Positions 1,009 through 61,500 of a DNA stretch of 64,000 nt are shown one piece after another; positions within the stretch are counted from its first letter, which is position 1; every line of letters begins with the position of its first letter. The notes beneath the pieces were generated by a model. That model worked only from the letters and a program-made list of their open reading frames with translations, had not been told where the DNA came from and ran no database searches. A program made the position numbers and the translations under genes. Source of the DNA: Mobula birostris (Eukaryota); NCBI RefSeq assembly GCF_030028105.1, contig NC_092392.1, forward strand, positions 3,550,613 to 3,614,612. The letters are read 5' to 3'.

Positions 1009-1120
1009 GAGTCCAGATGAAGGGTCTCACCTGAAATGTTTCCGTCCACAGATGCTGCCTGGCCTGTGGCAGGTTGTTATTTGCTGCAGATTCTAGTATG
1101 TGCAGTCTCTTGTGTCTCCA
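1009..1120 (+). mobile_element. Penelope-like pseudo-LTR fragment with degenerate hammerhead
   Basis: gagtcCAGATGAagggtctcacctGAAAtgtt followed by gatgctgcctggcctg, shared with the other copies. Confidence 0.6.
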
Positions 1121-2255
1121 GCATAGTTTGACATGAAAACATGTCTACCACATTTCACTGTATGTTTCGACGTACACATGATAAATAAATAAATGAATCT
1201 GCACCTGAACCTGTTCACTCCCGTCTAAAGGCATTTGAACCGAGTTTCCACCACATATTCTTAGCACACTCCCTTTATGTCTTATCCCTGCTGTACAATT
1301 GTCTTTGATCCAAACCCTAGTTGCCTCCTGATCTCACTATTCCAAAGCTCTGCTGGAAAGTCTCTCATTTTCCATTGACTACCCAAGCACGTCCACACTG
1401 CATTGCCGACATTCTAAGCCCTGCTGACCAACCAGCCCCATCTCTGACTCTGTTCTCGTTGGCACACGTTAGACTCTCTGCCAATGTTAAAAGTTCTACC
1501 CTTCTACTTAAATCCGAATGGCCTCAACATCTTCTCCAGCTTGCCAAGAAATCTATGGTTCTTCAGTCCTGTGCAGTTCCAATTGTTACCTTACAAATCC
1601 TTGGATATCCTCAATCAATTTTGCACTCTTCATTTAAGACCTTCCTTGAATTGTATTCCTGTAACCAAGATCTTGATTTACTGACCTTTTCAGCTAGGTA
1701 TTGATATTTGGTTCATTATATTTATATGAACCACCTTGGGAATTTTTCTGGCAGCAAAGATTTTACGCAAGTCTGAGCTGCTGTTTTAATACAGATATCA
1801 CAACAGACAAACCATGAAGAAGAGGCCTCATAACGTGCATGCAGTAATTAATGCAGAGCACAGTAGTTAATACATTTAGATGTTGTGGAACTTGCACAAT
1901 GGCTCTTTTCCAGGGGAATGTTAGGGCTGTTAATTACAATTCTTAATTTAGGTGATTAAAACACTGCAGATTAAAGCCATGTGGATCATGTACAGTAATT
2001 ATGTAAGCATTTAGACTTCTAAAGTATTAGCTCTCAAAATGCTTGGCTTATCAGCAGAGGTATGATAAATTTGCACGTGGCCTTTTAACTACTGAAACCT
2101 GGATTTGCTCCCGTTTGAGGGTTGAAATTTGAAGGACATTTCATTCATTTGAATGTGAGGGTCGCACAGGAGGTGAAAGCTAGGGAAATAAACACTTTCA
2201 GTGGGCTTACATTCATGTCTTTTAAAGGGCCTCATAAAGATGGTATGGGGAGTCT

Positions 2256-2450
2256 NNNNNNNNNNNNNNNNNNNNNNNNNNNNNNNNNNNNNNNNNNNNN
2301 NNNNNNNNNNNNNNNNNNNNNNNNNNNNNNNNNNNNNNNNNNNNNNNNNNNNNNNNNNNNNNNNNNNNNNNNNNNNNNNNNNNNNNNNNNNNNNNNNNNN
2401 NNNNNNNNNNNNNNNNNNNNNNNNNNNNNNNNNNNNNNNNNNNNNNNNNN
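2256..2450. other. Assembly gap (N run)
   Basis: Run of N. Confidence 1.
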
Positions 2451-2491
2451 ATGTATGTGTGTGCGTGCATGTTTGTGTGTGTGTGTGAGAC

Positions 2492-3170
2492 AAACACAAG
2501 AGATTCTGCGGATGCTGGAAATTGAAAGCAACACACACAAAATGCAGGAGGAAGTCAGCAGAGCAGGCAGCATCTGTGGAAAAGAATAAACAGTCGACGT
2601 TTCGGGCCAAGATCCTTCATCAGCACTGGAAGGAAAAGGGATGGAGTCAGATTAAGAAGGCGGGGACGGGGAGGAAGAAGTACAAATTGGTAGGTTGTGG
2701 GTGAAAACGGGAGGGGGTGGGTGTAGCAAAGAGCTGGGAAGCTGATTGGTGAAAGGGATAAAGGGCTGGAGAAGAGAGATTCTGATAGGAGAGGACAGAA
2801 AGACCATGGAAGAAAGGGAAAGGGGAGGAGCAACAGAAGGAGGAGAAGGGAAGGTGTGAGAGGGAAACAGGAATGGGGTACGGTGAAGAAGATGGGGGAG
2901 GGGAGAAATTACCAGAATTTCAAGAAATTAATGTTCATGCCATCAGATTGAAGGCTACCCAGGCAGAATATAAGGTGTTGCTCCTCCAAACTGAGTACAG
3001 CCTCATCTCAACAGTAGAGGAGGCCATGGACTGACATGTCAGAATGGGAATGGGAAGTGGAAATAAGATGGGTGGCCACTGGGAAATCCCACTTTTTGTG
3101 GTGGACAAAGCCAAGGTGTTTGACAAAACAAACTTCCAATTTCCCAATCTGTTTGTGTGTCTGAGCATGT
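2492..3170 (-). mobile_element. Penelope-like element 3' part (GIY-YIG C-terminus, purine/pyrimidine tract, pseudo-LTR)
   Basis: Homologous to 43330-44040, with the same GIY-YIG C-terminal remnant and pseudo-LTR with hammerhead. Truncated by the gap. Confidence 0.8.
2591..2628 (-). ncRNA. Hammerhead motif, near intact
   Basis: CAGUG CUGAUGA AGGAUCUUGGCCC GAAACGUC GACUG. Core intact, but the innermost stem I pair is mismatched and stem II is weakened. Confidence 0.6.
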
Positions 3171-3477
3171 NNNNNNNNNNNNNNNNNNNNNNNNNNNNNN
3201 NNNNNNNNNNNNNNNNNNNNNNNNNNNNNNNNNNNNNNNNNNNNNNNNNNNNNNNNNNNNNNNNNNNNNNNNNNNNNNNNNNNNNNNNNNNNNNNNNNNN
3301 NNNNNNNNNNNNNNNNNNNNNNNNNNNNNNNNNNNNNNNNNNNNNNNNNNNNNNNNNNNNNNNNNNNNNNNNNNNNNNNNNNNNNNNNNNNNNNNNNNNN
3401 NNNNNNNNNNNNNNNNNNNNNNNNNNNNNNNNNNNNNNNNNNNNNNNNNNNNNNNNNNNNNNNNNNNNNNNNNNNNN
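3171..3477. other. Assembly gap (N run)
   Basis: Run of N. Confidence 1.
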
Positions 3478-3929: not shown

Positions 3930-4265
3930 GCTTCTCCGAGAGGACCAGAACCTTGCCGTGGGTTGGAGGCTTGCATACCTCACTAACCCAGAGAGCTATG
4001 TTGGCTGGAGTCTGGGCTTAATGCTTTGGCTCTTGCTAGGTTCACCCATGCCAAACAGGTCAAAGGGTAGAGGCCAGACTAAGAGTGGTTCACCGGTCCT
4101 CCAGGTTCAGGGGTTCAGCTCAGGGCTAACAACCCTGACTGGTAAAACAAAATTGTTAGGCAAACAGCAATGAAGAATTCTTCAAACGTTTGAATGGCCA
4201 AGGACAGACAGAGATGGAGAACTTTCATTGCTGCCCTAAACACCATCAGAGTGACGGGCAGTAGG
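3930..4265 (+). mobile_element. Probable RTE-derived non-autonomous element (5' UTR joined to 3' end)
   Basis: gggctaacaaccctgactggtaaaac (RTE 5'-UTR-like) followed by ggccaaggacagacagagatggaga...gttgctgccct-like RTE 3' terminus. Recognised by pattern only. Confidence 0.45.
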
Positions 4266-4849
4266 TGATTACACTGCTGCTACCCCAACCTACTACGTAG
4301 CTCAGCCAGGCACGAATGTAAAGCTAATGTGGTCGTGAGTCATTTTGGTAGACGTTTCTGCAGCCATGAGTGGAGCTTGTGTATGGAGACACAAAAGACA
4401 GCAGATGCTGCAATCAGGAGCAAAAGACAAATTGCTGGAGCAACTTACAAGGGCAGGCAGCATCTGTGGGGGAGATGCTCAGATGTGCCCACATTTTCAG
4501 CTGTCAGATCTGTTTGGAGACAATTCCATCAAGTGTGATATCTGTGCTCAGTGTGACGAGAGGATTTTGTCTCCACAACAACTATGCAAGGGTAATTTCT
4601 ACCAATATTATAACGAATGGACATATTTGCAACAGGTAGATTAAAGAGGATGATGCCAAAGAGGTTTATATTTCATGTCAGTTAATTCACTTTCTGTCAC
4701 AGACCCAAGTCCTTCAGAAGCTAGGCACCTCAGTCAGCGGTGGTCCCACAAAGCCATTCTTCAAAAGATATCCACTGTCAAATCAAATTCAAATGGTTCA
4801 ATTTAATATCAGAGAATGTAACCTGAAATTCTTATTCTACACAGTCATC

Positions 4850-6663: not shown

Positions 6664-7110
6664 CTCAGTGGCCACTTTATTAGGTACACCTGCTCATTAA
6701 TGCAAATATCTAAACAGCCAATCAAGAGGTTCAGTTGTTGTTCAGACCAAACATCACAATGGGGAAACAATGTGATCCAAGTGACTTTAACCGTGGATTG
6801 ATTGTTGGTGCCAGACAGGGTGGTTTGAGTATCTGAGAAACTGTTGATCTTGGATTTTCAAGAACAAATAGTCTGAAGTTTACAGAGAATGGTATGAGAA
6901 ACAAGAACAAATATCCAGCGAGCAGTTCAGAGGAGAATGACCAAACTGGCTCAAGCTGACAGGAGGGTGACAGTAACTGAAATAATCACACATTACAACA
7001 GAGAGCATCTCTGAACACACAACATGTCGAGCCTTGAAGTGGATGGGCTACAGCAGCCGGAGACCAGGAACATACACCCAGTGGCCACTGTATTAGGTTC
7101 AGGAGGTAGA
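6664..7110 (+). mobile_element. Degenerate non-autonomous Tc1-like element(s), CTCAGTGGCCACTTTATTAGG terminus family
   Basis: The same terminus and internal sequence recur at 23250-23722 and 55622-56240, where the transposase N-terminal remnant DLDQGMIVGAR is visible. Confidence 0.7.
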
Positions 7111-8105: not shown

Positions 8106-9360
8106 AACCTACAGAGTCACTTCCACAACACAGGTTCCCAATTTTATTTATTTATTAATTATTTGTAAATTCCCTGTTTGTCTTTTTTTGCACTTGTTTG
8201 TCTGAGTTTGTTTGTATGTACTTTTTCATTGATCCTATTGTGTTTCTTTCTTCTACTGTGAATTCCTGCAAGGAAATGAATCTCAGGGTCATACATGGTG
8301 ACATATATGTACTTTGATAATAAATTTACTCTGAACTTTGATTAAATAAGAGGGTACAGTACATGGTCTATGATCTAAGGAGTATCAATAGGTACTGTAC
8401 CTGTTGAATCATTCTTTGTACCTATGAATAACATGGAAATGTGTTCCAAACATCTACCAGCTTTTGTCTAGCAGAAGTTGCTTCCAAACTTTCCTTCTAA
8501 AAAGCTGAGTGCAAATGTTTGACTCTATCCTTTAATCTTCTCTCAGCAGTGGAAATGGTTTCTCTATCTGCTTCAATTTCCTTAATTGCTTGCAAACTCT
8601 TAAGGTTCAAAGTTCATATTGATTACCAAAGTATGCATACCATGCTCAAATTTGAGATTCATGCTCTTGCAGGCAGTCACAAAGCAAAGGAACACAATAG
8701 AATCCTTGAAAAGCCCACACAACAAAGACGGTCAAACATCCAATGTGCAAAATAAAGAACAAATTGTGTAAATAATTGAAATAGTAAACATTAATACATA
8801 GAATATGTGTGGCAGGGTCCTTGAGAGAGGGCCACAGTATGGAGTCAGTTCAGTGTTGAGGTGAGTGAAGCTGGTCCAGGAACCCGATGGCTGCAGGCAA
8901 CACTGTTCCCGAAACTACTGGCTTCGGGCCTTAGACCCTTGCACCTCCTGCATGATGGTAGTAGTGAGGAGAAAGGGAGATGGGTCAAATGCAAGCAGAC
9001 GTGACAGGCTCAAGAGGGGATCCCTGGCTGGCACGAAGAAGAACACCAGATAGTTCTCCACTCACGATCCTCACCACTTTAATCTGGCTCGGTGCCTTAA
9101 TTGGTGCAGAGTAGAGAGGCCGAATATCGGTTCATTTTCCACTCTTGGGCCTTGACGCTTTATTCTGGCCCGAGGTCTGTGCCCCAGACAGTCATGCCAG
9201 CAAGTAAAATCAGGCTGCATGAAATCACTTTCCATCTTGGTAAACTTGAAGGGATCCTAAATTCTGCTGATAATCCTGTATCTTGGCTCCTGTTCACCAG
9301 TACTGGCTGTACTGTGAGATTTGTGTTGATTGGAACTACCTAATGTTAGAATGCTCAGGG

Positions 9361-9615
9361 AACAATAGACTGCAGACACTGGAATCAGGAGCAAAACAAA
9401 CTGATGGCAGGAGTCAGCGTGTTGAGCAGCATGTGTGAGGCAAAGTGGTTGTTACCATTCCAGGTCATCATCATGCATTGGGATATAGAGCCTGAAGCAG
9501 ACTCTCATCCCAAATGTTCACCATTCCTTTGTCTACATAGGTGCTTTTTGACCTTCTGATTTCTACCATCAGTTTATATTTCTCCCAGTTCTAGCGTCTG
9601 CAGCCCCTTGTGCTT
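9361..9615. mobile_element. Old inverted (hairpin) pair of Penelope pseudo-LTR halves
   Basis: Left arm ctgcagacactggaa...aactgatggcaggagtcag pairs loosely with right arm ctgatttctaccatcagttt...ttctagcgtctgcag. Confidence 0.55.
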
Positions 9616-9929
9616 TGAGAATTTTAACATTTAAGTGATTTCAACCAACATAATTCTCACATCAGTTTATTGTTTGTTAAAATTTGCAAGTGTCTTTCAT
9701 ATCTCTCTTCAGCCAACCCCCTTCCTCTTTAATCTCTTTCACCCTACAAATCTTCCACAATTTCTACATCTCCCCAGTTCCATTCTCTCAAATTTTTAAA
9801 AATCTTAATCACAGTCCCAGTGACAGCAATACCTTCATCTATTTCAGTGATGAGCACTGGAAATTGTTTCTTTAAATATTTTCATTGTTTTCTCCTTCTT
9901 TGATATTCTCTTTAAATCATATATCTTTG

Positions 9930-11345: not shown

Positions 11346-11358
11346 AGACTGTAAGAAC

Positions 11359-11960
11359 CCACCTTCCCCCTCACCTTGTCCTGCCTATCGCTTGCCAGCT
11401 TGTACTCCTTCCCCTTCCCACACTAATCTGCCCCTTTCCTTTCCAGTCCTGATGAAGGCAGAATGATAAGGTGCAGGAAGGGGAAGGGGTACAAACTGGC
11501 AAGACAAGGTGAGGGGGAAAGTGGGTCGATGGGAGAAGGGGATTAAGTCAGAAGCTGGGAGGAGACAGGTGTAAGAGGTGAAAGGCTGAAGAGGAAGGAA
11601 TCTGACAGAACAGTGGACCACAGAAGAAAGGGGAGCAGGAGGGGCACCAGTGGGAGGAGATGGACAAGTGAGGAGAAGGGAAAGGGGTTAGAGGCGACCA
11701 AAACAGGGAATGGAAAAACAAAGAGGTGGGGAGGGGAGAATTTAGTAGAAGTTAGAGAAACTGATGATCATGCCATCAGGTTGGAGGTTAACCAGAAGCA
11801 ATATCGGCTGTTGCTCCACCAACTTGCGTGTGACCTCATTGTGGCAGTAGAGGTCATGGATGGACATGTTGGAACAAGAATAGGAAGTCAAATTGAAATG
11901 GATGGCCACTAGGAGATCCCACCCTTTGTGGAGGAACAGAAACAAACAAAACCTGTAACA
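11359..11960 (-). mobile_element. Penelope-like element with inverted terminal segment
   Basis: ORF 11742-11945 reads VAIHFNLTSYSCSNMSIHDL...LVEQQPILLLVNLQPDGMIISFSNF (GIY-YIG C-terminus). An inverted repeat spans about 11359-11420 and 11478-11526, with a truncated cagtcCTGATGAagg between the arms. Confidence 0.75.
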
Positions 11961-13670: not shown

Positions 13671-14773
13671 AATTTTGATATAATAATATTCTTCAACATT
13701 CTCATCAAATAAATTGCCAGTGCAATAAAAACTAAATTAGTTATGTATTGCATGTATTTAATTCCTTGCTTGTCAGTATCTGATACAACCTTTTTTCAGG
13801 GACATAAACTCCGTGAAGTTGGGTTCATGGAGTTCTTGCTTGAAAACGCAGTTTGATGGGAGTCTTTTATGTGTTGGAGAGTAAGTTGATTTTGAAAGTT
13901 ATCTTTAATCTTCGGGTTTTTTTTGCACTGGGCAATGAAATTTGCCACACATTAGCAGACATTTTATCCCAACTACCAGTCACAGAGAAGAAATCCTATT
14001 CCTATTCCCTTTTTAAAAGATCTGCATTCATCTTCATACTTGTTTTGTTGTTGTTGCTCTAGGTTTTACTTGTGCCCACAGCAAGGGGTGCTATTGTCCA
14101 CAAGAGGGTTACAAGTGATTGTTCAAAGAATTTTAATCGGTTTTTAACTGGAGTCTTGGTGTTAGCTGCACATAATGGGAAACAGCGTAATTATAATACT
14201 CTAGTATAATGAAATCTCATTTTACAATGAGAAATTAAAAGTCTTCAGGAGCTTTAAGCTGCACATCAGAGTCACGCATGATGTAACAGCTGTGGTCTGA
14301 CATCAGTGACAGAGAAAATGCTGGAATCTATAATGAAGGATTTAACACTTAGTAAAGAATAATGGGATTAAACAGAGGCAGCATGACATTACAAAAGGGA
14401 CATTAAATTTAGCCATTCTATTGAAATGCTTTGAGGATGTGACCAGTAAAATAGATAAGGGGCAAATTCCATGGGTCCTGTTGGAGGGTTATAGCCAGAG
14501 ATGTTGGCTGTTGTTCCCTCTTCGCTTGCTGAATTCCTCCAATATTTTGTGCACATTGCTGGCATTCTATCTACTCTTTGGGTAAAGGCTCCTCTGGAAT
14601 CCTGTTTGATACATCAGTGACAATCATGTCCAAGGTTTTTAACCCTTATTCATCAGTTCCAGATTCAGAGTTGGAACAAAGCTGGGACAGCTCCTTGGAT
14701 GGTGGGTAGGCTTGGGAGTCAGTGAATCATGGAAACACATGGCAGTGGTTGGTGGCTATTTACTAGGCAAGTC

Positions 14774-14964
14774 ACAGGAGGTACCGCACATGCCGGAAAT
14801 CTAGAGCAATACACAATGTGCTGGAGATCTCAGCAAGTCAGGCAGCATTTATGGATGGAAATAAACAGGCTGATGAAGGGTCTCGGCTCGAAATGTCAAC
14901 AGTTTATTCCCATCCATTGATGCTGCCTGACATGCTGAGTTCCTCCAGCACACTGTGTGTATTG
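14774..14964 (+). mobile_element. Hairpin mini-element derived from Penelope pseudo-LTRs, with hammerhead core and 11-bp TSD
   Basis: TSD ctaggcaagtc at 14763-14773 and 14965-14975. Arms ~14806-14868 and ~14900-14965 are inverted. The loop contains CTGATGAagggtctcggctcGAAAtgtc. Confidence 0.8.
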
Positions 14965-15323
14965 CTAGGCAAGTCTCCTGGTCCTGATGGATGCATCCCA
15001 GGGTACAGAAAGAAATAGAGTAAGTTATAGCAGATGCGGGTAGAGGTTATAGTAGAGGCAACCTTATTAAATACAATTAAGACAGTTAGATAGACTTTCT
15101 GACTAGTAAGCAGATCTACAGTGCCAATAAAAAGTATTCACACTCCTTGGAAGTTTTCAGGTTTTATTGTCTTACAACATTGAATTACAATGGATTTAAT
15201 TTGGCTTGCTTTTGACATTATCAACAGAAAAAGACCCTTTTGCGTCAAGGTGAAAACAGATCTCTACAAAGTGATCTAAATAAATCTCAAATTTAAAACA
15301 CTAAAGAATTGATTGCATAAGTA

Positions 15324-15965
15324 AACACAAAATAATCTGCAGATGCTGGGGTCAAAGCAACACTCACAACACGTTGGAGGAACTCAGCAGCTCGGGCAGC
15401 ATCCGTGGAAATGATCAGTCGACGTTTCGGGTCGGAACCCTTCGTCAGGACTGTGGGGGAAGGGGCAGAGGCCCTATAAAGAAGGTGGGGGGAGAGTGGG
15501 AAGGAGAAGGTTGGTGGGTTCCAGGCGAAAAACCAGTAAGGGGAAAGATAAAGGGGTGGGGGAAGGGAGGCAGGGAGGCAGGGAGGTGATAGGCAGGAAA
15601 GGTGAAGAAAGAATAGGGGAAAACACAGTGGGTAGTAGAAGGAGGCGGAACCATGAGGGAGGTAGTAGGCAGCTGGGGGAGGGGGAAGAGTGACATAGGG
15701 ATAGAGGAAGGGAGGGGGAGGGAATTACCGGAAGTTGGAGAATTCTATGTTCATACCAAGGGGCTGGAGACTACCTAGACTGTATATGAGGTGTTGCTCC
15801 TCCAACCTGAGTTTAGCCTCATCATGGCAGTAGAGGAGGCCATGTATGGACATATCTGAATGGGAGTGGGAAGCAGAGTTGAAGTGGGTGGCTACTGGGA
15901 GATCCTGTCTGTTTTGGCGGACGGAGCAGAGGTGCTCGACGTCTGTTTTGGCGGACGGAGCAGAG
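15324..15965 (-). mobile_element. Penelope-like element inserted in Tc1
   Basis: Pseudo-LTR with intact hammerhead, purine-rich spacer, and GIY-YIG C-terminal remnant at ~15725-15930. Confidence 0.85.
15416..15453 (-). ncRNA. Minimal type-I hammerhead ribozyme motif, intact core
   Basis: Minus strand reads CAGUC CUGACGA A GGG UUCCGA CCC GAAACGUC GACUG: 5-bp stem I, conserved CUGANGA and GAAA, 3-bp stem II, palindromic ACGU stem III, GUC cleavage triplet. Lies in a Penelope-like pseudo-LTR. Confidence 0.8.
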
Positions 15966-21760: not shown

Positions 21761-22222
21761 CTCACCTCACATCAAACAAATGAAGTCTCAGCGCGTTCTT
21801 TCCTTTAGCAGAATATATTATTTCCAGGTCGAAGTAAAACAAACGCATTAACGTCAGTGCACAGAAAAATGAGTTATCAGCCCCTGGTCTTCTCCCTCCC
21901 CTTGCACTGTTGTAGTGTGAGTACCTGATGATAAAATGAACCACTGTGTCCATCCTAGGCAGTGTCCTGCAGCTCCAAAGACGCGTTCATACTCTGGCTG
22001 CAGAATTGGTAGAAAAAGTTTTTCCTTTACAATTGCCCTGAAGAATATAGTCTGCAGTCTGCTGGACCCAAATTGACATTGTAGCTAATGAAATGAGATC
22101 CCCTGGAGAAAATGCTCTCCCATTTCACTTTCAGAGTGAGACCATATCTCTAAGTTACAGTGCAAATTTACACTTTATTTGGTACAGTAGATATGCTCAC
22201 GGTCTTCTGCTGCAAGGATTAA

Positions 22223-23225
22223 AAATACAAGAAATTCTGCAGATGCTGGAAATCCAAAGCAACACACACAAAATGCTGAAGGAATCCAGCATCTATGGAA
22301 ATGAGAAAAACAGTCGCTGAATCGGGCTGAGATATTTCTTCAGGACTGAAAAGGGGAAGACGATAGAATAAAAGGTGAGGGAAGGGGAAGGGGAAGGAGG
22401 ATAGCTAGCAGGTGATAGGTGAAGCCAGGTGGGTAGGAAAGGTAAAGGGCTGGAGAGGAAGAGATATTACAGGAGAAGAAAGTGGACCATAAGAGAAAGG
22501 GAAGGAAGAAGGGACCCAGAGAGGTGGTAGGCAGGTGAAAAGAGGAATCAAAAGAGAGAGGAGGGGGAGAGGAATTTTTTCTGGTAGGAGGAATCGATAT
22601 TCATGCCATCAGGTTGGAAGCTACCCAGATGAAATATAAGGTGTTGCTCCTTCACCCTGAGGGTGGGACAAGTGGAGGCCATGGACCAACATGTCAGAAT
22701 GGGAATTAAAATGTTTGGTCACTGGGAAGTTCCACTTTTGGTAGATGGAGTGGAGCTGCTTGATGAAGCTGCTCCCAGTTTATGACAGTTCTTACCAATG
22801 TAGAGGAGGCCACACTGGTAGCACCGAACACAATAGATGTCCCCTGCAGATTCACAGCTGAAATGTTGTCTCACCTTGAATGCAGGTGAGACAGCAGGTA
22901 AATGGGCAGGTGTAGCACATTGGTTGCTTGCAGAGATAAGTGCTAGGAGGCAGATTAGTGGGAAGGGACAAATGGACAAGGGCATCATGGAAGGAGCGAT
23001 ACCTGTAGAAAGCAGAGAGACGGGGAGGTTCGGTGGCAGGATCTCTTTGGAGATGGGGGAAGTTGCGGAGAGTGATGTGTTGGATGCAGAAGCTCATGGG
23101 GTGGTAGGTAAGGATAAAGGGAAGTCTGTCGTTGTTAAGGAAGATAGGGTGAGCGTGGAGGAGATGCAGTTGAAAACACCATCAATGGTGCAGGAAGGGA
23201 GTCCCCATCCTTTGAAGGAGGAGGT
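22223..23225 (-). mobile_element. Penelope-like element with GIY-YIG endonuclease remnant
   Basis: ORF 22719-22988 contains FKVRQHFSCESAGDIYCVRCYQCGLLYIG (GIY-YIG motif). Pseudo-LTR with a degenerate hammerhead at 22311-22348. Confidence 0.85.
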
Positions 23226-23249
23226 AACTTGTGGAAAGGAAAACCACAA

Positions 23250-26394: not shown

Positions 26395-26510
26395 CAGTCC
26401 TGGTGAAGGGTCTCAGCCTGAAACTTTGACTGTTTATTCCTCTCCATAGATGCTGCCTGACCTGCTGTTTGTTACCCTGGATTTCCAGCATCTTCAGAAT
26501 CTCCTGTGTT
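26395..26510 (+). mobile_element. Penelope pseudo-LTR fragment with mutated hammerhead
   Basis: cagtcCTGGTGAagggtctcagcctGAAActttgactg followed by gatgctgcctgacctgctg. Confidence 0.7.
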
Positions 26511-27419
26511 TACGCCATAAAATAAATTCAAGTTAACTTTATTTGGTCCAACAGTAAGATGGTGTTACAGAGCAGTCACCAATGTTTGGCTGATGGGGCT
26601 TAAACACACTCCCAATTTGATTAATTTCAGCAGAAATAGTGACTAGAAGCAAAGAAATAGACAGACGCAGAAGGACACAATGAGCTGCCAGTGCAAGTGG
26701 TGGATAGGGAGTTCAATTTCAGCATTTAAGGGAATTATGGATGGAGGGGTACGGAGGGCAATGGCCCAGATCGATGGGATTGGGCAGAATAACAGCATAA
26801 TTCAGACTAGATGGGCTGTAGAGCTTGTTTTCTGTCCTATGGCTCTACTGTTAGTAATGGATTATCAGCTATTGTTTGACTGTGTTTTGACATCTCATAT
26901 GTCTGTTGATTCTGGATGCATGCTTTAATCCGAACAGATCTACAATATCTGCAGTTTCGACGGGCCAAACAGCCACCCCTCATTTCCTGTTCTCCTCTGC
27001 TCTTGAACTTCATGTTATGATTGGAGCATTTTGCAAAGAACTGTAAAACAAAATTTGTGTGGGAAGAAAAAGAAAACTCGGGAAAAAGCCTCATATCATC
27101 CAGAAACCAATTTACACCGCACTTCTGAAACTTTATAATGGTACATAGACAGTAAAAAGAATTGCACTTCACACATCAGGAACAGAAAGTTAATGGAATT
27201 ATGTAGGTGTCAAAATGTGCCTCATCATTCACTCTAAAAATAACAAGGAGATTAAACAAAATATTGTGTAACATTGCGTTTGGTTTTGGTAACTGAACTT
27301 CAAGAATATGATTCAGGGGTACAGGGGTGGTATAGTGGGTAAATTAAATTTTTTTATCTCATTTAGAAATACAGAACAGTAACAGGCTCTTTTGGCCCAA
27401 AAAGCCCAGGCCACCCAAT

Positions 27420-37564: not shown

Positions 37565-40500
37565 CTGGGGGAGAGAAACGAGATCAAGAAAAATTGGATT
37601 ACAGTGAACAAAAGGATTAAAGGGAGTGATGTGATATTAGATTGTACTGAGGCTTCACAGCAGCTAGCACTTTGTACAAGGAGATGTGACATTTCCATAA
37701 TGGAACCTGGTACCAGAGTAGGATGAACACACTTATGACTGCATCTGAAATTGGTTTATTATTGTCACATTTACCAAGATCAGTGAAAACCTTGTCTTGC
37801 GTACTTTTTGTACAGACTAGGCTAGATAAGATAAAACAATAAAAATGCAGAATAAAACGTAAAATGTACCATAGGAGCGGAGTGCAGTTACAATGATAAA
37901 ATCATAATGAGGTAGATTACGAGACCAAGAGTCCACCTTATCATACAAGAGAACCATTGAAGAGACCAACAACAGCAGAGTAGAAACTGTCCTTGAGACT
38001 GGTGGTATGTGTTTTCAGGCTTTTGTACCTTCTGCCCGATGGGAGAGCTTATATCTCTGGATAATATTTTGGTAGAACTGGAACCATTTACATACAGTGT
38101 CCCCTGAGCTCATGTCCATTGCAATGTTACATAGAGGCAGATCACAAGGGCACAGTTCTGAAACAAGCCAGTGCTCACTGATTTGGCTGCTGTCCAGATC
38201 TCACTATCATTACATCTTTACTGCCTTTTTGAGAATCTTAGGTACATGGACGACAGAAAAATGGAGAGCTATGTGGGAGAGAAGGGTTAGGTTGATCTTG
38301 GAGCAGGTTAAAATGTCAGCATAGTAACATGGACCAAAAGGCCTGCATGATTCCACAACTCGGGACTCATTGTCAAGGTCTCCACAACCCATGTTCTCAA
38401 TGTTACTGATTGATTGTATTTGCACAGTTTTGTCATCTTTCGCACGTTGCTTGTGTCTTTGTTGTAGTTTTTCATTTATTCTATTTTTAAAATTTGTTCT
38501 ACTGTGAATGCCTGCAAGAAAATGAATCTCAGGGAAGTATATGGCGACAGATATGTACTTGGATAATAAATTTACTTTGAACTCGGCTGTAATATTCTAT
38601 GTTCTATAACATTTACACATAAAGCACCATATCTGATCAGTGATCTGCTTGAGATTCTGTGGTGAAGCAGGGATGACAACATTAGGTTAAGGTGATGCTG
38701 ATAGTAAGATTACAGCATAATTAATGCAGCTCTGTGGTAAAGAAGAGATGCCACTTACGGTTTGTGTTTATTTTGATAACACACGTACTGTACACATGAA
38801 TATAAATCTGGTCTCCGGTAGCAAATCAGCCTGTAATGTCCATGGAAAGGTGGCTCGCTACCAGCTTCTCGAGAGCAATTAGGCATGGACAACAATTGTT
38901 GGCCTTGCCAATGACACACAGATCCCCAAAATAAATTTAGGAAAAACATGACTATGAAATTCAGAGGTCCATGATGCATGGTTGAAGCTTCCCTCACTAG
39001 GTTCAGATTTCAGTGGCACCCACTTCCTTTGTAATCAATTAACCTGTGAATACAATCAGAATGTACAGAGCAAACGACCATTTTGTATTCAATGTCAGAT
39101 ATGCTCTACTTTCTGCATAAACAACTAACAAAGAGCTAATTTTCATTTACAGTTAGTGTTGGCTGCAGGTCAGAAATGGGTGTTAGACCAAGCAAGGCTA
39201 ATTATATCAGTGCAAAGCCAATCACCTGCTGTGTAGCTCTAGGGGAAAAAACAAGGTATCTGGAAATGTTAACCCACAAAGAGACAACAGCCCTCTCATT
39301 TTTCATAATTCACCATCTATTGTTATTAAGCTGTAATTTCAACACAAATATGTATTTAGAGCCCTAATATGAATGGGGTATTTGGCACAAGACATCCAAA
39401 TTCCCAGAGTGACTCCTAATGATAAATAGTTCCATCTGTTTGTCCACATGTACAAACCAATTCAATCCAGCAATTAGAATGATTGTGCAGAAAGGCCAGA
39501 AATGGAATATGCTCTGTTTGATGTGAGCTACATGTATGCACGAGTCATTTATAGGTATCTGCTGGTTTTCAATACTGAAAAATAACAAGACAATAAATAA
39601 AGAGACCCCAACAACCCTTACTCATGTTAATAAACTGCTCTGGAATGGTATCCTGAAAATTCATATTTCAGTGACCTCCTCCTCCAAAAAAAAAATCAGA
39701 ATCTATAAATGATTCAATTCATTTCCATTCCATTGATATTTTTCAAAAACAAAAGCTGTAATTATTTTTATTAATTGTTGCCAATCAATGGACGTTCTCT
39801 TAAAATGTGCAGCACAATTTGTCGATCCAGCCATGTGCCAGGTCACAAAGGTAGGGATATCCCAACCTAAATTGTCAGCTCAACTTCCCTCCATAAATGC
39901 TGCCCGACCTGCGAAGCTCCTCCAGTATTGTGTGTATTGCAACAGATTCCAACATCTGCAGTCTCCTGTGTCCCTGTGATGGCTGACCTCTGGCCCAGAA
40001 GCATATATAACAAGCATTTTAGTGGACTTTATAAGTAAGCATTTTTAAAAAATCCAGATTAGTAACTAAATTTAAATTCCACAGATCCCACGGTTTCTGG
40101 ATTACCCATCTGGCAATTTAATCATTGTTCATCTTACAGTGATAGCACATTGGTTAAAACAGTCGAATTGTATCAAGATTTCCAGGCAAAAAAAGCCAGA
40201 GATGTGAGTTCAAATCCTGCCAGAGTACCTAAAAAATTTAAGTTCGAATAATCATATGCCATCAGGAACAACAATAATAACAATAACTAAGGATCACAGA
40301 ACTATCAGAATTGCAGATGGCAATTGTTCATTTGGGAAGGAAATCTGCTCTCAGTACCGACTCTGGTCAATGCGTGACTCCTAATCCAGAGGAGTGCGGC
40401 TGACTTTTAAATGCTCGCTGAAAAGGCAAAGTGTGGCACTCAGTTGGCTAACCACCATCTTTCCAAATGGTTACTAAAGATGTGCAAAATAATCTGGTCT

Positions 40501-40779: not shown

Positions 40780-41140
40780 AAAATAGACACTTGCCACAGG
40801 TGCAGCACCTATTCTTCCAGCTCCTCCCTCCCTCCCAGCAATCAGGGACGCATATACTTTCTAGATGAAGCAGCAAATCACCCGTGCTTCAAACGTAGTC
40901 AACTAGACTTGAAGATGTTCACTACGTGGTCTCCTCCACAATGGACAGAGCAAATGCATATTGGGTGAGTATATTGCAAAGCACCCACATTCAATATGCA
41001 AAGGGAACCTGCAGCCTCTTGTTCGTTGCTAAAGTTCTCCATCCCGTCTCACTCTGACCTATCTCCTGTACTGTAACAGTGAGACTTATGCAAGCTTGAG
41101 GAACAGCTCCTCATCTTCCATCTGAGCCTGTCGTCCTTTA
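40780..41140 (+). mobile_element. Decayed Penelope-like GIY-YIG fragment
   Basis: caagcttgaggaacagctcctcatcttccatctg corresponds to LEEQ.LIF.L of the other copies. Confidence 0.5.
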
Positions 41141-41149
41141 GTGATAGTA

Positions 41150-41695
41150 GCATAGAACATAGACCAGTACAGCACAGCACAGGCCCTTTGGCCCACGACC
41201 TTTCAACCTATTCTAGGCTCAGTCTAACACTTCACACTGACACAGCTCTCATTTTTCTATCATCCACATGCCTATCTAAGAGTTTCTGAAATGTCCCTAA
41301 TGTATCTGCCTCTACCACCACCCCTGGCAGTGAGTTTCATGCATTTACCACTCTCTGTCTAAGCATTTACAACTGACATCTCCCTCAACTTTCCTCGAAT
41401 CACGTTAAAATTATGCCCCCTGGTATTTGCTATTTCCGCCCTGGGAAAAGGTCTCTGGCTATCCATTCAATCTACGCCTCTTATCATCTTGTACACCTCT
41501 ATCAAGAAATCTCTCACCCTCCTTTGCTCCAACCAAAGGGAAAAGGCCAAGCTCACTTAACCTTTCCTCATAAGGCATGCTCTCTAATACAGGCAGCGCC
41601 CTGGTAAATCTCCTCTCCATCCTCTCTAAAGCTTCTACATCTTTCCTATAATGAGGCAACCAGAACTGAGGACAATATTCCAAGTGGGGTCTAAT
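41150..41695 (-). mobile_element. CR1 LINE 3' end
   Basis: EYCPQFWLPHYRKDVEALERMERRFTR; 3' tail atagaacatagac. Confidence 0.85.
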
Positions 41696-42109
41696 ATTGG
41701 CCCAGCTTGTTTGTTGATTTCACCCTCTGGGAGTGGAGGACAAGTTAGCCCAATCTGCCAAGGATATCTTCCTGTTCTGCATTTCATCATTCCTCCAGTC
41801 TTCTGTCAAGATTCTTTTTTATATGTACTCACTCACTCTCTCACTGCTTCCACTCACACAGTGGGATGACCTCATCTGCAACTTAACCCAATCGACACTT
41901 CAGTTTTACCTTGTCAGAGACAAATCCCACCTTCACGCTCCCAGCAGCCTAGCTCACTGCTTTAATCTCTGTCCCATTTTTGACGAAGGGACTTTCACCA
42001 ATTTCCCCCGGGATCAATAAAGTATGACTATGACACCTGAAACATTAAGTTTGCTTTTCTTCTCACACATGTGGTCTGAGCTGCATTTCCTGTTTTGATA
42101 TTACTTCTG

Positions 42110-42625
42110 CAGATATACCGTGGAGAGCATTCTGATTGGCTGCATCATCATCTAGTGGGGGGGGCGCGGGTGCTACTGCACAGGATCGAAAGAAGCTACA
42201 GTAAATTGTAAAATTAGACAGCTCCATCATAGGTACTAGCCTCCATTGATCCAAGACACCTTCACGGAGCGGTGCCTCAGAAACGCGGCATCCATTATTA
42301 AGGACCCCCATCACCCAGAACATGCCCTCTTCTCATTGTTACCATCAGGAAGGAGGTACAGAAGCCTGAAGACACACAGTCAGTGATTCAGGAACAGCTT
42401 CTTCCCCTCTGTCAACCAATTTCTAAATGGACATTGAACCCATGAATACTACCTCAATTTTTATTTTTTTTGCACTATTTTAACTAGTTACTATACATAT
42501 ATACTTACTGTAATTGATTAACTTATTTATTTTTCTTGTCTATTTATCACAAATTACATTGTACCGCTGCTGCTAAGTTAACAGATTTCATGACATATGC
42601 CAGTGATATTAAACCTGATTCTGAG
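42110..42625 (+). mobile_element. Rex1-type LINE 3' end
   Basis: gcatccattattaaggacccccatcaccc...ccatcaggaaggaggtacagaagcctgaag; tail attaaacctgattctga. Confidence 0.8.
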
Positions 42626-43306
42626 AAAAAGAAATTTCCCCTTCTTTTCTCTTGATATCTCTTCCCCACTTCTGATGAAGGGTCCCGAACAAGAAATGAC
42701 AACCATTTCAATTTTTTCACATGCTGCCTGACCTGTGTGTTTCTGGTCATTTCTGTTTTCATTTAAGGATCTGAAAATCTCTCTTTTAAAAATATTCAGA
42801 GATGCTGCGTCTACCTCACATGGAGGACGAGAATTCTGAAGCATCAGAGCAAGAGTACTCAGAAAAAAAATCCACCTAAGCTGTCTCTGAAATGGGTGAC
42901 TCCTTATTTTCAAATAATGCCTCCACAGTAATTCTTGCACCCATCCTGTCAAAATCCCTCAAAACCTTGAAAGTTTCAATCACAGTGACCCTCTTTCTTC
43001 TGAACTCCAGCTCATCTAGGCATAGCTTGTCCAACCTTTCCTCATAAGTGAAATTGGGACATTACAGATACAGTATTAGTCTTGTAAAACCTGCTGTGAA
43101 CCGCTTGCTTTACACTTACATTCATCTTTAGATTAAGGGTCAATACTAAACACAGTACTCCAGATGTGGTATGATATAAATTAATCATAAACTCCCTCCT
43201 TTTGTATTCAATTCTCCTTGCAATAAACAATAACGTCTGTTAGCTCTCCTAATTACCTGCTGTAACTGCATACCAGCCTTTTGAGAACTATGCTGTAAGA
43301 TGCCCA

Positions 43307-44039
43307 CAACAACAGGTATTCTGCAGATGCTGGAAATTCAAGCTCCCGATGTGGCCTTTTATATATTGGCGAGACCCGACGCAGACTGGGAGACTGCTTT
43401 GCTGAACATCTACGCTCTGTCCGCCAGAGAAAGCAGGATCTCCCAGTGGCCACACATTTTAATTCCACATCCCATTCCCATTCTGACATGTCTATCCACG
43501 GCCTCCTATACTGTAAAGATGAAGCCACACTCAGGTTGGAGGAACAACACCTTATATTCCGTCTGGGTAGCCTCCAACCTGATATATTCCGTCTGGGTAG
43601 CCTCCAACCTGATGGCATGAACATCGACTTCTCTAACTTCTGCTAAGGCCCCACCTCCCCCTCGTACCCCATCTGTTACTTATTTTTATGCACACATTCT
43701 TTCTCTCACTCTCCTTTTTCTCCTTCTGTCCCTCTGAATATACCTCTTGCCCATCCTCTGGGTCCCCCACCCCCCCTTGTCTTTCTTCCCGGACCTCCTG
43801 TCCCATGATCCTCTCGTATCCCCCTTTGCCTATCACCAGTCCAGCTCTTGGCTCCATCCCTCCCCCTCCTGTCTTCTCCTATCATTTTGGATCTCCCCCT
43901 CCCCCTCCAACTTTCAAATCCCTTACTCACTCTTCCTTCAGTTAGTCCTGACGAAGGGTCTCGGCCTGAAACGTTGACTGCACCTCTTCTTAGAGATGCT
44001 GCCTGGCCTGCTGCGTTCACCAGCAACTTTGATGTGTGT
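43307..44039 (+). mobile_element. Penelope-like element with 13-bp TSD, inverted 5' pseudo-LTR stub, GIY-YIG remnant and hammerhead
   Basis: TSD tgtaagatgccca at 43294-43306 and 44040-44052. Encodes CGLLYIGETRRRLGDCFAEHLRSVR...VATHFNSTSHSHSDMSIHGL...LEEQHLIFRLGSLQPDGMNIDFSNF. Confidence 0.92.
43944..43979 (+). ncRNA. Minimal type-I hammerhead ribozyme motif, intact core
   Basis: AGUC CUGACGA AGG GUCUCGG CCU GAAACGUU GACU: 4-bp stem I, AGG/CCU stem II, palindromic AACGUU, GUU triplet. Lies downstream of a GIY-YIG coding remnant. Confidence 0.75.
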
Positions 44040-45299
44040 TGTAAGATGCCCAGATCCCTTTGTGCCTCAGATCTCTGCAGTCTGTCACCATTTAGATAAT
44101 ACACTTTTATATCTTCCTTGCCAAAATCATCAGTTCACATTTTCCTGCATAATGCTCAATTTGCCAGATGTGATCTCATCAATGTTTTAGATAACAATGA
44201 AGCATAACTGTTCTCTTTCCACTCAAACCCCCAGCAATTGGCCAGATGTTTGCCGACACATTCCTTTTTTTAAGCCTCCTTTTGCTCTCTTCACACCCTC
44301 CTCATCTTCCTCCCTTTGCCTCGTAAGTAAATTTAGCAACTACCGTCTCTTTGGTGCCTTCATCCAGGTCACTTGAACTTAAATGCTGAGACTTCAACTT
44401 TAATTTCCTCCCGCACTTACATTGCTACATCTTACCAAGTAAGAAAAGATTCACTTATGCCAACTGCTCCCTGTTAGCCAGCCAGCCTTCTGTCCAGACC
44501 AATGCTGTCCCCTACACCACGATCTTGTATTTCTCTGAGTACCCTCTGATCTGCTGCATCACAGCGATATAAATGCAATAAATGAAACTTCAGTTAAGAG
44601 TCCGTGGTGAAGTTGAACTTCTGTAATGTTTTAAGGTATTTTGCACTGTTCAGCTCCTTTGATAGTTACTGTACTCTTTATGAAGGTCTGTCTTTTACTC
44701 TGTCAGCAGGCACAAGCAGCGGCAGCTGTTAATTACTAATTGCCAATGCCAATTCATTCCTTACAAACAAATACCATACAAGAGGTTTAAATAAATGACT
44801 CAGGATGGCATTTTCTCTATTTCTCTCCCAATCACATCCAACAACGTTCACCAGCTGCACTCCCTGAACAGAGAGTACACCATCAGCTTGTGTTCACTGA
44901 ATCTTTACGGACTGATTAAATATTCCTACCAAATTAAAAGCTTATTGTTACTGGACATTAACCAGAATTTAGTCCTGTGAAGAGGCTTCCAGAAAGCAGG
45001 AGTTGGCTAATGAGTCACAAGGTCCCTTTGGGTATAATTTAACCACTTTTACTCTGAGTCCATAACCATGTTTCACCTTCAAGCCCAAACCAATCATTGG
45101 TGTGCAGCTCAACAAAGTACTCATTCCACACATCCTCTCAGCAAAATTCTTTCATTATTTAGAATAGCTCCACTAGGACTGCTAGGAGGCATTGACCCCG
45201 TCTACTTATCAAACAAGCTGTAATTCCCAGGTTTACCTGGAGGGAAACTAAATAATGCATTTCTTCTATGTTTCCCCCTTCTGTTTAACTATTTATTTA

Positions 45300-45630
45300 T
45301 TCTTCCTTTTCTCCCCTCCCCTTCACTCTTCTTTTCTCCACTCTGGCCTCAGCTCTTCTCCTCACCTGCCTATCAGCAACTCCCTCTTCTCTTTCACCCA
45401 TGGTCCACTCGCCTCTCCTTTCAGATACTTTCCTCTCCTCCCCTTCACCTTTCACACCCACCTGGCTTCACCTATCACTTTCAAACTAGTTCTCCCTCCC
45501 CTCCTCCAACCTTTCCAGTCCCGAAGAAGGATCTTAGCCCAAAATGTCGACTGTTTATTCAGTTCCATAGATGCTGCCTGACCTGCTGAGTTTCTCCAGT
45601 ATGTTTTGTGTGTTTTTTTCTGGTAGATTT
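45300..45630 (+). mobile_element. Penelope pseudo-LTR with mutated hammerhead (45516-45553)
   Basis: Pyrimidine tract followed by cagtcCCGAAGAaggatcttagcccAAAAtgtcgactg and gatgctgcctgacctgctgag. Confidence 0.75.
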
Positions 45631-46384: not shown

Positions 46385-47090
46385 AGATTGATGGAGGAAC
46401 TCAGCAGACCAGGCAGCACCTATGAAAAAAAGCAGAGTCAACGTTTCAGGTTGAAACCCTGAATGGCTTTGGCCTGAAACGTTGACTGTACTTTTTTCCA
46501 TAGATGCTGCCTGGCCTGCTGAGTTCCTCCAGCATTTTGAGTGTCTTGCTCGGATTCTCAGCATCTGCAGATGAAGCCACGCTTGGAGGAACAACACCTT
46601 ATATTCCGTCTGCATAGCCTCCAACCTGATGACATGACCATTGGCTTCTCTAACTTCTGTTAATGCCCTTCCTCCCATTTTCACCCCATCCCTTAGTTGT
46701 TTATTTTTCTATCTATCTATCCTTTTTTTCTCTGTCTGTCTCTCTCACAATTACTCTGCCTGCTCTCCATCTTCCTCTGGCGCTCTCCTCCCCCTTTCTT
46801 TCTCCCTAGGCCTCCCATCCCATGATCCTCTCCTTTCTCCAGCTCTGTATCCCTTTTGCCTATCAATTTTCCAGCTCCTAGCTCTATCCCTCCCCCTCCT
46901 GTCTTCTCCTATCATTTCGGATCTCCCCCTCTCCCTCCTACTTTCAAATCTCTTACTATCTCTTCTTTCAGTTAGTCCTGAAACATCGACTATGCTCCTT
47001 CCTATAGATGCTGCCTGGCCTGCTGCGTTCCACCAGCATTTTGTGTGTGTTGCTTGAATTTCCAGCATCTGCAGATTTTCTCTCGTTTGT
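46385..47090 (+). mobile_element. Composite Penelope-like locus: inverted pseudo-LTR pair, GIY-YIG tail, terminal pseudo-LTR
   Basis: Arms ~46392-46450 and ~46473-46531 are inverted, followed by LEEQHLIFRL-type sequence. The terminal pseudo-LTR has its hammerhead core deleted at ~46978. Confidence 0.85.
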
Positions 47091-47221
47091 GGCAAAATTG
47101 ACGGTGTTCTGCTGGAACGCTGCTCATTTACACGACAAACATGAAGCTATTAATTTGTGTTTCCTCCTCTCCAGAACCAAGATCACCGCAACTTCAGTCA
47201 TGAAGATCATCCCACTCCATG

Positions 47222-59559: not shown

Positions 59560-59870
59560 CAGAATCAGAATTAAGTTTAATATCACCGGCATATATTGTG
59601 AAATTTGTTGTCTTTGTAGCAGCAATACATAATAATAGAGGAAAAAACTTTGAAAAAAGTTCCAACGTGCATTCGGAAATCAGATGGCAGAGGGAAGAAG
59701 ATGTTCTTGAATCACTGAGTGTGTGCCTTCAGGCTTCTGTACCTCCGTACTGATGGTAACAACGAGAACAAGACATGAGCTGAGTGGTGGGGGGATCCTC
59801 TTTCAAGTATCGCTCCTTGAAGATGTCCTGGATATCACGGAGGCCAATGCCCATGATGGAGCTGCCATAA
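59560..59870 (-). mobile_element. Rex1-type LINE 3' end
   Basis: cagaatcagaattaagtttaat tail, homologous to 12290-12730. Confidence 0.7.
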
Positions 59871-60899
59871 ATGACAGAACAGTCATGAGGTATCTACTAC
59901 TGCTTCTAATTTTTAAGTTGTCACACCAACCAAAAAGAGACTGTTCACTGGAGAACTTTGCTCTACTCATCCTCCGAGGGAGATGGTCAAATCCAGTTTT
60001 CCTTGCCTTGCACCCTCTGCCAAAGAACAAAATGCCCCTCTTCATCAAGGTGCAGAGGTCAGAATGGCCAACAGCAGGTGGAAGATATCCTCTTCCGCCA
60101 CTTCCTATCACCTCTTCTGAACAGCCAGTGGCAGCAGACAGAAGCACTTTGCACTTTGTCCTTTTCCACAACACACCGAGCTTTGCACCCAGATGCTGCT
60201 TTCAGATGCACCCTTCACTGGTTAGCGGGAACACTATGAGTAGAATGCATACCATTCATCAAACGGCTGTGGAACTCTGCAAGTAAGATGCAGCTTGGTT
60301 TTGATACGGAACTGCATGTGGTCAATCACAAGACATGCAAGTTTACAAATCTGGGAGAAGTGAAAAGATAGTGGAGGTGGTTTCTGCCATAAGATGCGGA
60401 AAAATCAGCCCTAAGATAGGACAGGCTCTGGAAGACAGCTCTGGAGGGTACACAGTAAAATACTTCCAGCACTGTAATCATGAGTCACCAGCTTGTTGTG
60501 GTGGCTGTAACTATGGATTGAGGATTTGTATGCTACAGAGGACCATGCCGAAGGATGTAAGCATCTTTTAGAGCCTTGATGTGTCTGTCGGCAGAATGAA
60601 CAACAAGCCACTGCCTCGTTTTGTGACAAGTCCAATGGAAACACTTATACTGAGACAGGAAATATGATTCATATGACAGTGATGTTTCACTGTCGCTGCA
60701 GCATAAAGTACCATCATTTTTCTTCCTGATTTATATCATCAACTGATTTTCACCAATACAGAACAGGGGAGCGGTGCTTGTTTGCTCATTCATTTTCAGT
60801 ATCAGGGCATCACTGGCAAGGCCACAATTTATTGCTGATCCCTAATAGCTCTTGAGAAAGAGGTGAACAGCCTTCTTGAACTACTGTACTTCTGGTGAA

Positions 60900-61300
60900 A
60901 CTACAGCCCAGCCCAATTCAGCACAGGAAAAGCTCTTCCCACCAAGAGCACTGCCACAAGAATGCAGAACCATCAAGGGCTTCCACCATCCAGGCTATGC
61001 TCTCCTCTCGCTGCTACCATAAGGACGAAGGTATGTGAGCCTTTGGTCCCTTACTCTTCAGCCATCAGGCTCCTGAACCAGCATGGGTAACTTCACCGAC
61101 CACAACAAAGAACTGATTACTCAACACAAGCTTTGTACTTACTTTCAAGGACTCTACAATTCATGTTCTTAGTATAATTCATTTACTTCTTAATTTATTA
61201 TTATTTGTTTCTTTTTTGTCTTTGCACAGTTTGCTTTCTTTTGCACATTGGTTGCTTATCAGTTTTTGTTTGTGTGTATTTTTTCATTGATTTTATTGTA
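60900..61300 (+). mobile_element. Rex1-type LINE 3' end
   Basis: Homologous to 13165-13670. Confidence 0.65.
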
Positions 61301-61307
61301 CTTCTTT

Positions 61308-61500
61308 AGCAACACACATAAAATGCTGGAGGAACTCAGCAGGTCAGGCAGTGACAATGGAGGGAGATGAACAGTCAACGTTTTGGCCACGGCCCGTCAG
61401 CAGAACTGAATTGGAAGAGGGTAGAAGCCAGGATGAAAGGGTAGGGTTGGGGGAGGAACATGAGCTGGCAGGTGATAGATGAATTCAGGTGAGAAGGAAA
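61308..61500 (-). mobile_element. Penelope pseudo-LTR with broken hammerhead (61372-61408)
   Basis: Minus strand cagttCTGCTGAcgggccgtggccAAAAcgttgactg. Confidence 0.7.

Follow-up and report, generated by a model that had tools for sequence, protein, structure and literature searches.

Introduction

Massive dispersed families of minimal type-I hammerhead ribozymes (HHRs) carried by Penelope-like elements (PLEs) have already been published for vertebrate genomes, with counts for coelacanth and Xenopus tropicalis of about 4,000 and 9,000, respectively (PMC4209133). As described there, these motifs have an additional base that lies after position 9 and before 10.1, a G10.1-C11.1 pair and a palindromic 15.2-16.2, and their monomers gave no cleavage and their dimers little; a review reports low or assisted activity and covers the dimer cleavage of Lunse et al. 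2016/17 (PMC6765202). In the Poseidon element of Anolis carolinensis, reverse transcription was reported to start downstream of the HHR, HHR mutants did not block insertion, and cleavage needed protein (PMC11167929). Here we analyze 64,000 nucleotides of Mobula birostris DNA (contig NC_092392.1, positions 3,550,613 to 3,614,612; hereafter the window, numbered from its first letter), for which a sequence-only reading had listed 14 sites of a hammerhead-like motif. All 14 are instances of a single repeat that forms the 3' end of a Penelope-like retrotransposon, which by linker motif and domain order appears to be of the Neptune type.

The closest described motif is the Neptune HHR of Acropora digitifera (Fig. 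S3 of PMC4209133). With the PLE-borne minimal HHRs of that paper the motif in the window shares the type-I order, CUGANGA followed by an extra nucleotide, G10.1-C11.1, a 4-bp stem II with a tetraloop and GAAA-CG-UH without a loop 3, as well as its place in the pseudo-long terminal repeat (pLTR) downstream of reverse transcriptase (RT) and endonuclease, the prevalence of solo truncated copies and a high sequence heterogeneity. It differs in having a stem I of 5 bp, against 3 bp in Acropora, and in its host, a cartilaginous fish, of which Table S1 and Fig. S3 of PMC4209133 contain none. The anole Poseidon element likewise has a pLTR with an HHR in sense orientation, insertions that reach ~70-105 nt beyond the cut site and two classes of 3' end one tail apart (PMC11167929), but relatives of the element studied here carry a Cys linker that is absent from Penelope/Poseidon, and no long open reading frame (ORF) was seen to start in the HHR here. 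With the Neptune clade of endonuclease-containing PLEs, as defined in PMC8557442, the element shares the C-terminal GIY-YIG with CCHH residues, the CX2-5CxxC linker, a tail at one end only, inverted 5' pieces and one copy beside a microsatellite. Neptune and Nematis are defined in the same source by this linker together with a C-terminal endonuclease, and the vertebrate clades reported in bioRxiv 10.64898/2026.07.22.740005 are Neptune and Poseidon, without Nematis. Non-LTR retrozymes share the type-I HHR, the link to pLTRs and the capacity for very high copy numbers (PMC7229834, a section title of which gives up to 120,000 for axolotl; bioRxiv 10.64898/2026.07.22.740005); they are, however, tandem repeats, those of PMC7229834 having canonical HHRs, whereas the copies here are dispersed, minimal and often attached to endonuclease remnants, and the window holds no tandem of intact motifs, same-strand spacings running from 392 bp to 24 kb. 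Among cartilaginous fishes, Penelope is listed in the whale shark repeats (PMC8455134) and retrozymes are reported from one chondrichthyan genome (bioRxiv 10.64898/2026.07.22.740005). A literature search whose scope left aside subscription papers, Repbase/Dfam and closed supplements found no PLE hammerheads of rays or sharks and no HHR-mapped junctions. The present case extends the known Penelope minimal HHR to batoid-like genomes.

Results

One repeat at all listed sites

The window has a GC content of ~42% and contains many decayed RT fragments resembling long interspersed elements (LINEs), together with one Tc1-type transposon. At each of the 14 coordinates given by the sequence-only reading we found the motif or a remnant of it. 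A nucleotide profile was built from 8 copies, which match it by construction, and recovered 13 of the 14 sites at E<1e-5. Sites outside the seed (1009, 11444, 14870, 42672 and both halves at 46460) had E values from 3.6e-6 to 6.6e-30; 41980 reached an E of only 0.82, and its assignment relies on reading by eye and a weak upstream endonuclease match. The profile added four HHR-bearing loci to the earlier list, namely 4392-4514(-), 9486(+) with an inverted arm at 9469(-), 14473(+) and 39845(+), and in all ~18 independent insertions were counted within the 64 kb, a high local density of remnants.

Similarity to the hammerhead by chance is an alternative to which we give practically no weight. It would agree with the bare CUGANGA..GAAA..UH boxes, which were not above chance (6 in the window vs a shuffle mean of 4.71), and with Rfam, in which no hammerhead family matched the window or, even at E<=10, either intact copy. 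A strict type-I descriptor, however, found two loci, 15416(-) and 43943(+), where block-wise dinucleotide shuffles gave a mean of 0.01 and 0 of 100 reached 2; the motif has a fixed place in the PLE 3' end, and it shows the published features of minimal HHRs. The family pattern gave 4 matches in the window vs 0 in 100 shuffles, and a profile of the HHR with its downstream block gave 21 matches at E<=1 and none in the reversed window. A covariance model from 10 copies found its own members again; the sole additional matches at E<0.02 were 1016, 46442 and 46440.

The carrier element

Taken together, the copies show a 3' end in which the end of a GIY-YIG domain and a stop codon are followed by a pyrimidine-rich untranslated region (UTR) of about 300 nt, the 38-nt HHR, ~70 conserved nt and, optionally, a tail of ~35 nt. 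The ORF remnant at 43350-43643 matched 23 of 119 candidate proteins, and the endonuclease remnant was closest to a Mobula hypostoma protein (85% identity), with Hypanus sabinus proteins (69-79%) and then Leucoraja erinacea behind it. The related proteins have a YIDD RT motif, a CX4CxxC linker and then GIY-YIG, with one RVT_1 fragment. When they were used in tblastn, sense-strand endonuclease remnants appeared at 7 loci, each reading towards the UTR and the HHR. The earlier statement that the motif often lies downstream of GIY-YIG remnants is borne out by these searches, such remnants being in or upstream of 7 of the 14 sites, that of 11444 on an inverted arm. A CX2-5CxxC linker between RT and endonuclease was seen in the copy at 22219-23231 and in proteins P0001, P0002 and P0004. 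Linker motif and domain order point to a Neptune-type PLE, of which the copies appear to represent several subfamilies. The endonuclease remnant also holds a 30-nt in-frame tandem duplication at about 43544-43603.

Target-site duplications beyond chance flank three of 15 units, with 13 bp (43294/44040), 11 bp (14763/14965) and 8 bp (4384/4515, p 0.03); the 13- and 11-bp duplications are perfect and exceed every match in 150 random window pairs. As judged by eye, the 3' ends fall into a short and a long class about 35 nt apart, and since this distance matches the published 30-40-bp tail it counts in favor of Penelope-like identity. The insertions at 43294, 14763 and 46385 have the tail on one arm only, as has been described for PLEs (PMC3846280, PMC2377424, PMC8969392).

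Several results weigh against our interpretation and were set against the evidence above. In addition to the missing Rfam match, Pfam detected GIY-YIG in 0 of 4 endonuclease fragments of the window, and no RT core lies within its 64 kb, so that the clade is assigned from the linker motif and the domain order and not from an RT tree. Twelve of the 15 units gave no target-site duplication beyond chance. In a small and heavily decayed sample of 10 copies, 79.8% of stem cells were paired and stems I and II showed one two-sided change, a score equalled or exceeded in 307 of 500 shuffles; the compensatory stem changes for which the sequence-only reading had proposed a test were not in excess in this sample. 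Finally, a double-hammerhead dimer is topologically possible, yet for the two intact copies ViennaRNA, whose energies leave core tertiary contacts out of account, places it higher than a pair of inactive hairpins, by 9.1 and 7.9 kcal/mol. With these points included, we put the probability at roughly 0.85 that the copies are old 5'-truncated insertions of Neptune-type Penelope-like subfamilies that carried minimal type-I hammerheads and are now mostly decayed.

Hammerhead structure and folding

At two of the 14 listed sites nothing is missing from the 12-base core, from stem I or stem II, or from the CG palindrome. The hammerhead at 15416..15453(-) consists of a 5-bp stem I, CUGACGA, an unpaired A, a 4-bp stem II, a UCCG loop and GAAA-CG-UC, with a predicted cut between 15421 and 15420; it belongs to a 5'-truncated element, 15321..15940(-), with an endonuclease C-terminus (15940-15728), a pyrimidine-rich UTR, the HHR and a long 3' end with tail. 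Its counterpart at 43943..43980(+) has a GUU site, a G-U at the base of stem II and a predicted cut between 43975 and 43976. It lies in a complete insertion within a perfect 13-bp target-site duplication, 43294..44052(+), that comprises a GIY-YIG remnant (43344-43643), the UTR, the intact HHR and a short 3' end, and whose 5' piece (about 43307-43341) is inverted and consists of tail only.

CUGANGA and GAAA boxes with UH in type-I order were found in the column majorities and in 4 of the 14 listed copies. The motif and the order of its parts in the ~38-nt consensus proposed earlier stand, but stem II had been placed in the wrong register. In that register (AGGG/CCY), which we rejected, the A-Y closing pair forms in just 2 of 9 copies; with GGGU-tetraloop-GCCY, 6 of 9 copies form G10.1-Y11.1 (G-C or G-U), and the inner pair is present in all of 10. 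The shifted register leaves an unpaired A after A9, and 14 of 18 copies have A at 9.1. The motif has no helix III or loop 3; at its palindromic 15.2-16.2, C was retained in 10 of 17 copies and G in 13 of 17, with C-to-T changes that fit CpG decay. On sequence grounds the consensus agrees with the minimal type-I hammerhead that has been published for PLEs, and the assignment of the motif to a 3' pLTR held for the whole set of sites.

In both intact monomers (n=2) the minimum-energy hairpin pairs U4-G5-A6-C7 with the cleavage triplet, and ViennaRNA gives an open-core fold a probability of 0.001 and 0.008. Because folding predicts an inactive monomer, hammerhead activity should need a dimer or a protein; the need for dimerization that had been supposed for intact copies is thus what folding and published relatives predict. 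These folds would also suit a motif that is kept for a non-catalytic role, such as binding of protein or RT or a 3' splice site over stem I, with cleavage being vestigial. In line with such a role, 8 of 10 UTR-bearing copies (by our reading 2628, 11444, 15453, 22348, 43943, 45516, 46969 and 61408) have a YAG where stem I begins, preceded by a pyrimidine tract, the intron end of the D. virilis Penelope is likewise YAG after a pyrimidine tract (PMC4209133), and HHR cleavage is dispensable in vitro in the anole element (PMC11167929). However, the consensus keeps every catalytic position across subfamilies, the CAG is needed by stem I too, pyrimidines are abundant throughout the UTR, just 2 of 6 copies have a GT donor at the stop codon, and 24 upstream-versus-UTR tests found no copy derived from spliced RNA, all of which makes a purely non-catalytic role improbable. 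An origin of the short copies from spliced RNA was rejected as well, no common upstream exon emerging from 15 + 24 tests.

Decay of the copies

Core and stem scoring covered the 12 core bases and both stems in 19 fragments. All 12 core bases were kept at 4 of the 14 listed sites, i.e. in the intact copies and, with stem defects, in 2591 and 14870. No pair of aligned copies exceeded 81% identity, and the median among 18 fragments was 58%, a value lowered by alignment error. Substitutions were counted in 13 of the 19 fragments, with 1009, 11444, 41980, 46451, 46460 and 46974 left out as partial or mis-registered. CpG positions of the motif differed from the majority in 40 of 104 cells; for the non-CpG core the figure was 23 of 130 (17.7%). 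The catalytic G12, which sits in a CpG, was changed in 5 of 13 copies, 4 times from G to A. This pattern looks like neutral decay of a motif that was constrained in master elements, and the broken core bases suggest that nearly all copies are dead.

The rival view that selection maintains the copies as a working ribozyme family, which might for instance cut host pre-mRNA, we consider very improbable. Two observations can be cited for it. The non-CpG core differs less than the downstream columns (306 of 1115 cells, 27.4%; Fisher p=0.016; column permutation p=0.031), and the intact copy at 15416 shares its strand with a CHCH-domain exon at 37431-37565. Excess core conservation, which the sequence-only reading had expected, was nonetheless seen in this first comparison only: the core was no better kept than the best 50-nt downstream block (141 of 615 cells differing, p=0.20). 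In addition, 12 of the 14 listed sites are broken, and the decay tracks CpG. A distance of 28 kb separates the two intact copies, which are on opposite strands, and the nearest same-strand neighbors of these copies, 1.3-10.9 kb off, are damaged; for these reasons cleavage in place by the intact copies is unlikely, although they might form a mixed dimer. The sequence-only reading had taken one copy per 5 kb as a sign of a very large ribozyme family, which overstates the case in view of the number of broken sites, an intact density of 2 per 64 kb and the lack of excess covariation. Mostly, then, the window is an expected fossil record of the 3' ends of a known retrotransposon.

The damage differs from copy to copy. 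Among those with upstream sequence, the element at 2489..3166(-) has an endonuclease remnant (3166-2915) and a 3' end that adjoins a (CA)n tract, and its HHR (2591-2628) keeps the core, but stem I closes with a G-G pair and stem II contains an A-C mismatch. The longest copy, 22219..23231(-), carries thumb/linker sequence with the Cys motif, a frameshifted GIY-YIG remnant and an HHR (22311-22348) whose GAAA box is destroyed. An old copy at 40856..42110(+), with a weak endonuclease remnant at 40856-41121 (E 5e-4), is split by another repeat (41151-41694) and has an insertion in loop 2 of its HHR near 41975(+). UTR, HHR and a short 3' end make up both 45253..45620(+) (HHR 45516-45553, U4 and G12 changed) and 61301..61515(-) (HHR 61372-61408, A6 and G12 changed), and the decayed copy at 42630..42785(+) has U16.1 changed and its stems broken. 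Shorter still are 1009..1120(+), which consists of HHR and downstream block without an upstream UTR and has U4 changed and stem I lost (11 of 12 core bases kept, by eye), and 26395..26512(+), which begins exactly at stem I and has A6 and G16.2 changed. Three short copies come from the profile: 14473..14560(+), a decayed HHR with downstream block and no UTR; 39845..39970(+), a heavily decayed HHR with downstream block and tail; and 4384..4522(-), a 123-bp insertion that begins in a decayed HHR within the 8-bp flanking duplication.

Insertion starts and fold-backs at the ribozyme

Eight of the 18 independent insertions (1009, 4514, 9486, 14473, 14865, 26395, 39845 and 46456) begin in the motif or within about 12 nt of it, and the remaining 10 extend further upstream. 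By a rough estimate from hand-set distances in this small and old sample, the stop rate is higher in the motif than over the following 300 nt by a factor of 6.6 (p=0.002). Moreover, 4 of 5 inverted structures turn in the ribozyme motif. In the head-to-head fold-back at 14763..14975, which lies within the perfect 11-bp target-site duplication, the junction is at stem I, a CAG being common to stem I and the inverted arm; the HHR core at 14870-14897(+) is intact and stem I is lost, and the inverted arm carries the tail and begins 2 nt past the predicted cut site. The structure at 46385..47094(+) is a fold-back of two half-HHRs (46385-46572) followed by a tandem piece with an endonuclease end (46547-46660), UTR and the HHR copy 46974 (46969-46985), whose core fell to an 18-nt deletion that runs between two CCTGA repeats within the motif. 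At 9313..9661, an old head-to-head fold-back absent from the earlier list, both arms begin in a decayed HHR; the arms also share about 60 bp past the usual tail end, which may be a longer-ended subfamily or duplicated flank. A tail-to-tail fold-back at 11357..11940 joins UTR and the 5' half of an HHR (11444-11458, +) to inverted UTR and an endonuclease remnant (11927-11715, -). The arms of the head-to-head fold-backs were sisters on the tree in 3 of 3 cases (bootstrap 88, 94 and 92), with no branch at the tool's strict support mark.

The clustering of 5' ends and inversions hints that the ribozyme sets where RT stops or joins. We tentatively propose that the hammerhead has a part in integration in addition to RNA processing: RT would stop preferentially in the ribozyme, at a self-cleaved end or at folded stems, and two cDNAs primed from opposite target strands would join through its complementary segments to give the inverted pLTRs that are typical of PLEs. 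Because the anole protein is reported to cleave and extend both target strands (PMC11167929), two cDNAs meeting at the ribozyme stems would be a simple reading of the fold-backs. Other observations argue against such a role at integration: the shared junction stretches are only 2-4 nt long; since most short copies keep the core, they are not cleavage run-offs; RT can be stalled by any strong hairpin; and other repeats of the window (34681, 8257) fold back too.

A further point against it is that a short non-autonomous family is not rejected by the tree. The copies that start at the ribozyme could be a separate element of HHR and tail, like a short interspersed element or a retrozyme, moved by the Penelope-like protein. 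Compatible with this, the 7 short copies checked have no upstream pyrimidine tract (pyrimidines make up 32-62% of the first 40 nt, vs 68-90%; the remaining one of the eight is a fold-back junction), a single clade of short copies is neither shown nor rejected by the tree (p-AU 0.156), and retrozymes have been proposed to derive from pLTRs (bioRxiv 10.64898/2026.07.22.740005). The short-copy label nevertheless needs 4 changes on the tree, with 0% of 200 bootstrap trees giving 1; 15 pairwise tests found no common upstream sequence; there are no tandem HHR arrays, and the start points differ within the motif. We therefore doubt that the short copies form an element of their own.

Other features of the window

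Part of the window is probably intronic. The CHCH-domain exon at 37431-37565(-), which we take to resemble CHCHD3/CHCHD6, has clean AG/GT sites and a Pfam E of 0.0019, below the cut-off; a homolog search with it found nothing, and no other exon of the host gene was located in the window. A search with the sense translation of the 2591 HHR region gave no homolog either. The antisense translation of the HHR and downstream block at 43862-44041(-) gave 5 hits, 3 of which (P0024-P0026, 84-90%) contain it as an internal piece of 38-39 residues; these are unrelated host-like predicted proteins, suggesting predicted antisense exonization of the pLTR and intact HHR copies elsewhere.

A Tc1/mariner-type element at 29371-30970 has 216-bp terminal inverted repeats of 95% identity and a split transposase, with a helix-turn-helix part at 30107-30640 and DDE_3 at 29667-30146. 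The 5' part of a LINE-like RT ORF of 547 aa (34619-36262) contains a perfect 60-bp inverted repeat (34681-34868), i.e. a local inversion. A second dispersed non-coding repeat family was seen at 8106-8896, 13419-13697, 38348-38603, 49440-49717, 54164-54319 and 61056-61307, with an inverted pair at 8140-8792. The microRNA matches of Rfam in the window are microsatellite or fold-back artefacts below the gathering score; behind spurious ones lies a (TG)n(TA)n(CA)n microsatellite palindrome at 19085-19156.

Discussion

The copies in the window can be accommodated in a scheme in which the hammerhead worked in active master elements and was then carried along. In such masters it would cut after GUC/GUU only when the ACGU palindrome let a second copy provide helix III, or when the protein of the element assisted; by comparison with relatives, tandem master copies may have provided for dimerization through ACGU, or protein assistance may have sufficed. 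Target-primed reverse transcription would use uncut RNA and begin 70-105 nt downstream of the cut site, its two start sites being separated by the length of one tail. With such a start on uncut RNA, the ribozyme would be copied into most insertions as a passenger. Decay after insertion, at CpG first, would leave nearly all copies dead.

Two intact copies in 64 kb correspond to about 30 per Mb (Poisson range roughly 4-110), in one selected window. If the window is typical, and with a genome size of 2-4 Gb, ray genomes would hold on the order of 10^4-10^5 or more intact minimal HHRs, above the 4,000-9,000 of coelacanth and Xenopus. Rfam misses Penelope minimal HHRs of this kind, and most matches to them would be fossils. 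The role of the hammerhead in PLEs is still called unclear in PMC8557442. In a genome with so many copies, thousands of 5' ends and inversion junctions could be mapped relative to the cut site and the stems, which would amount to a direct test of the ribozyme in integration.

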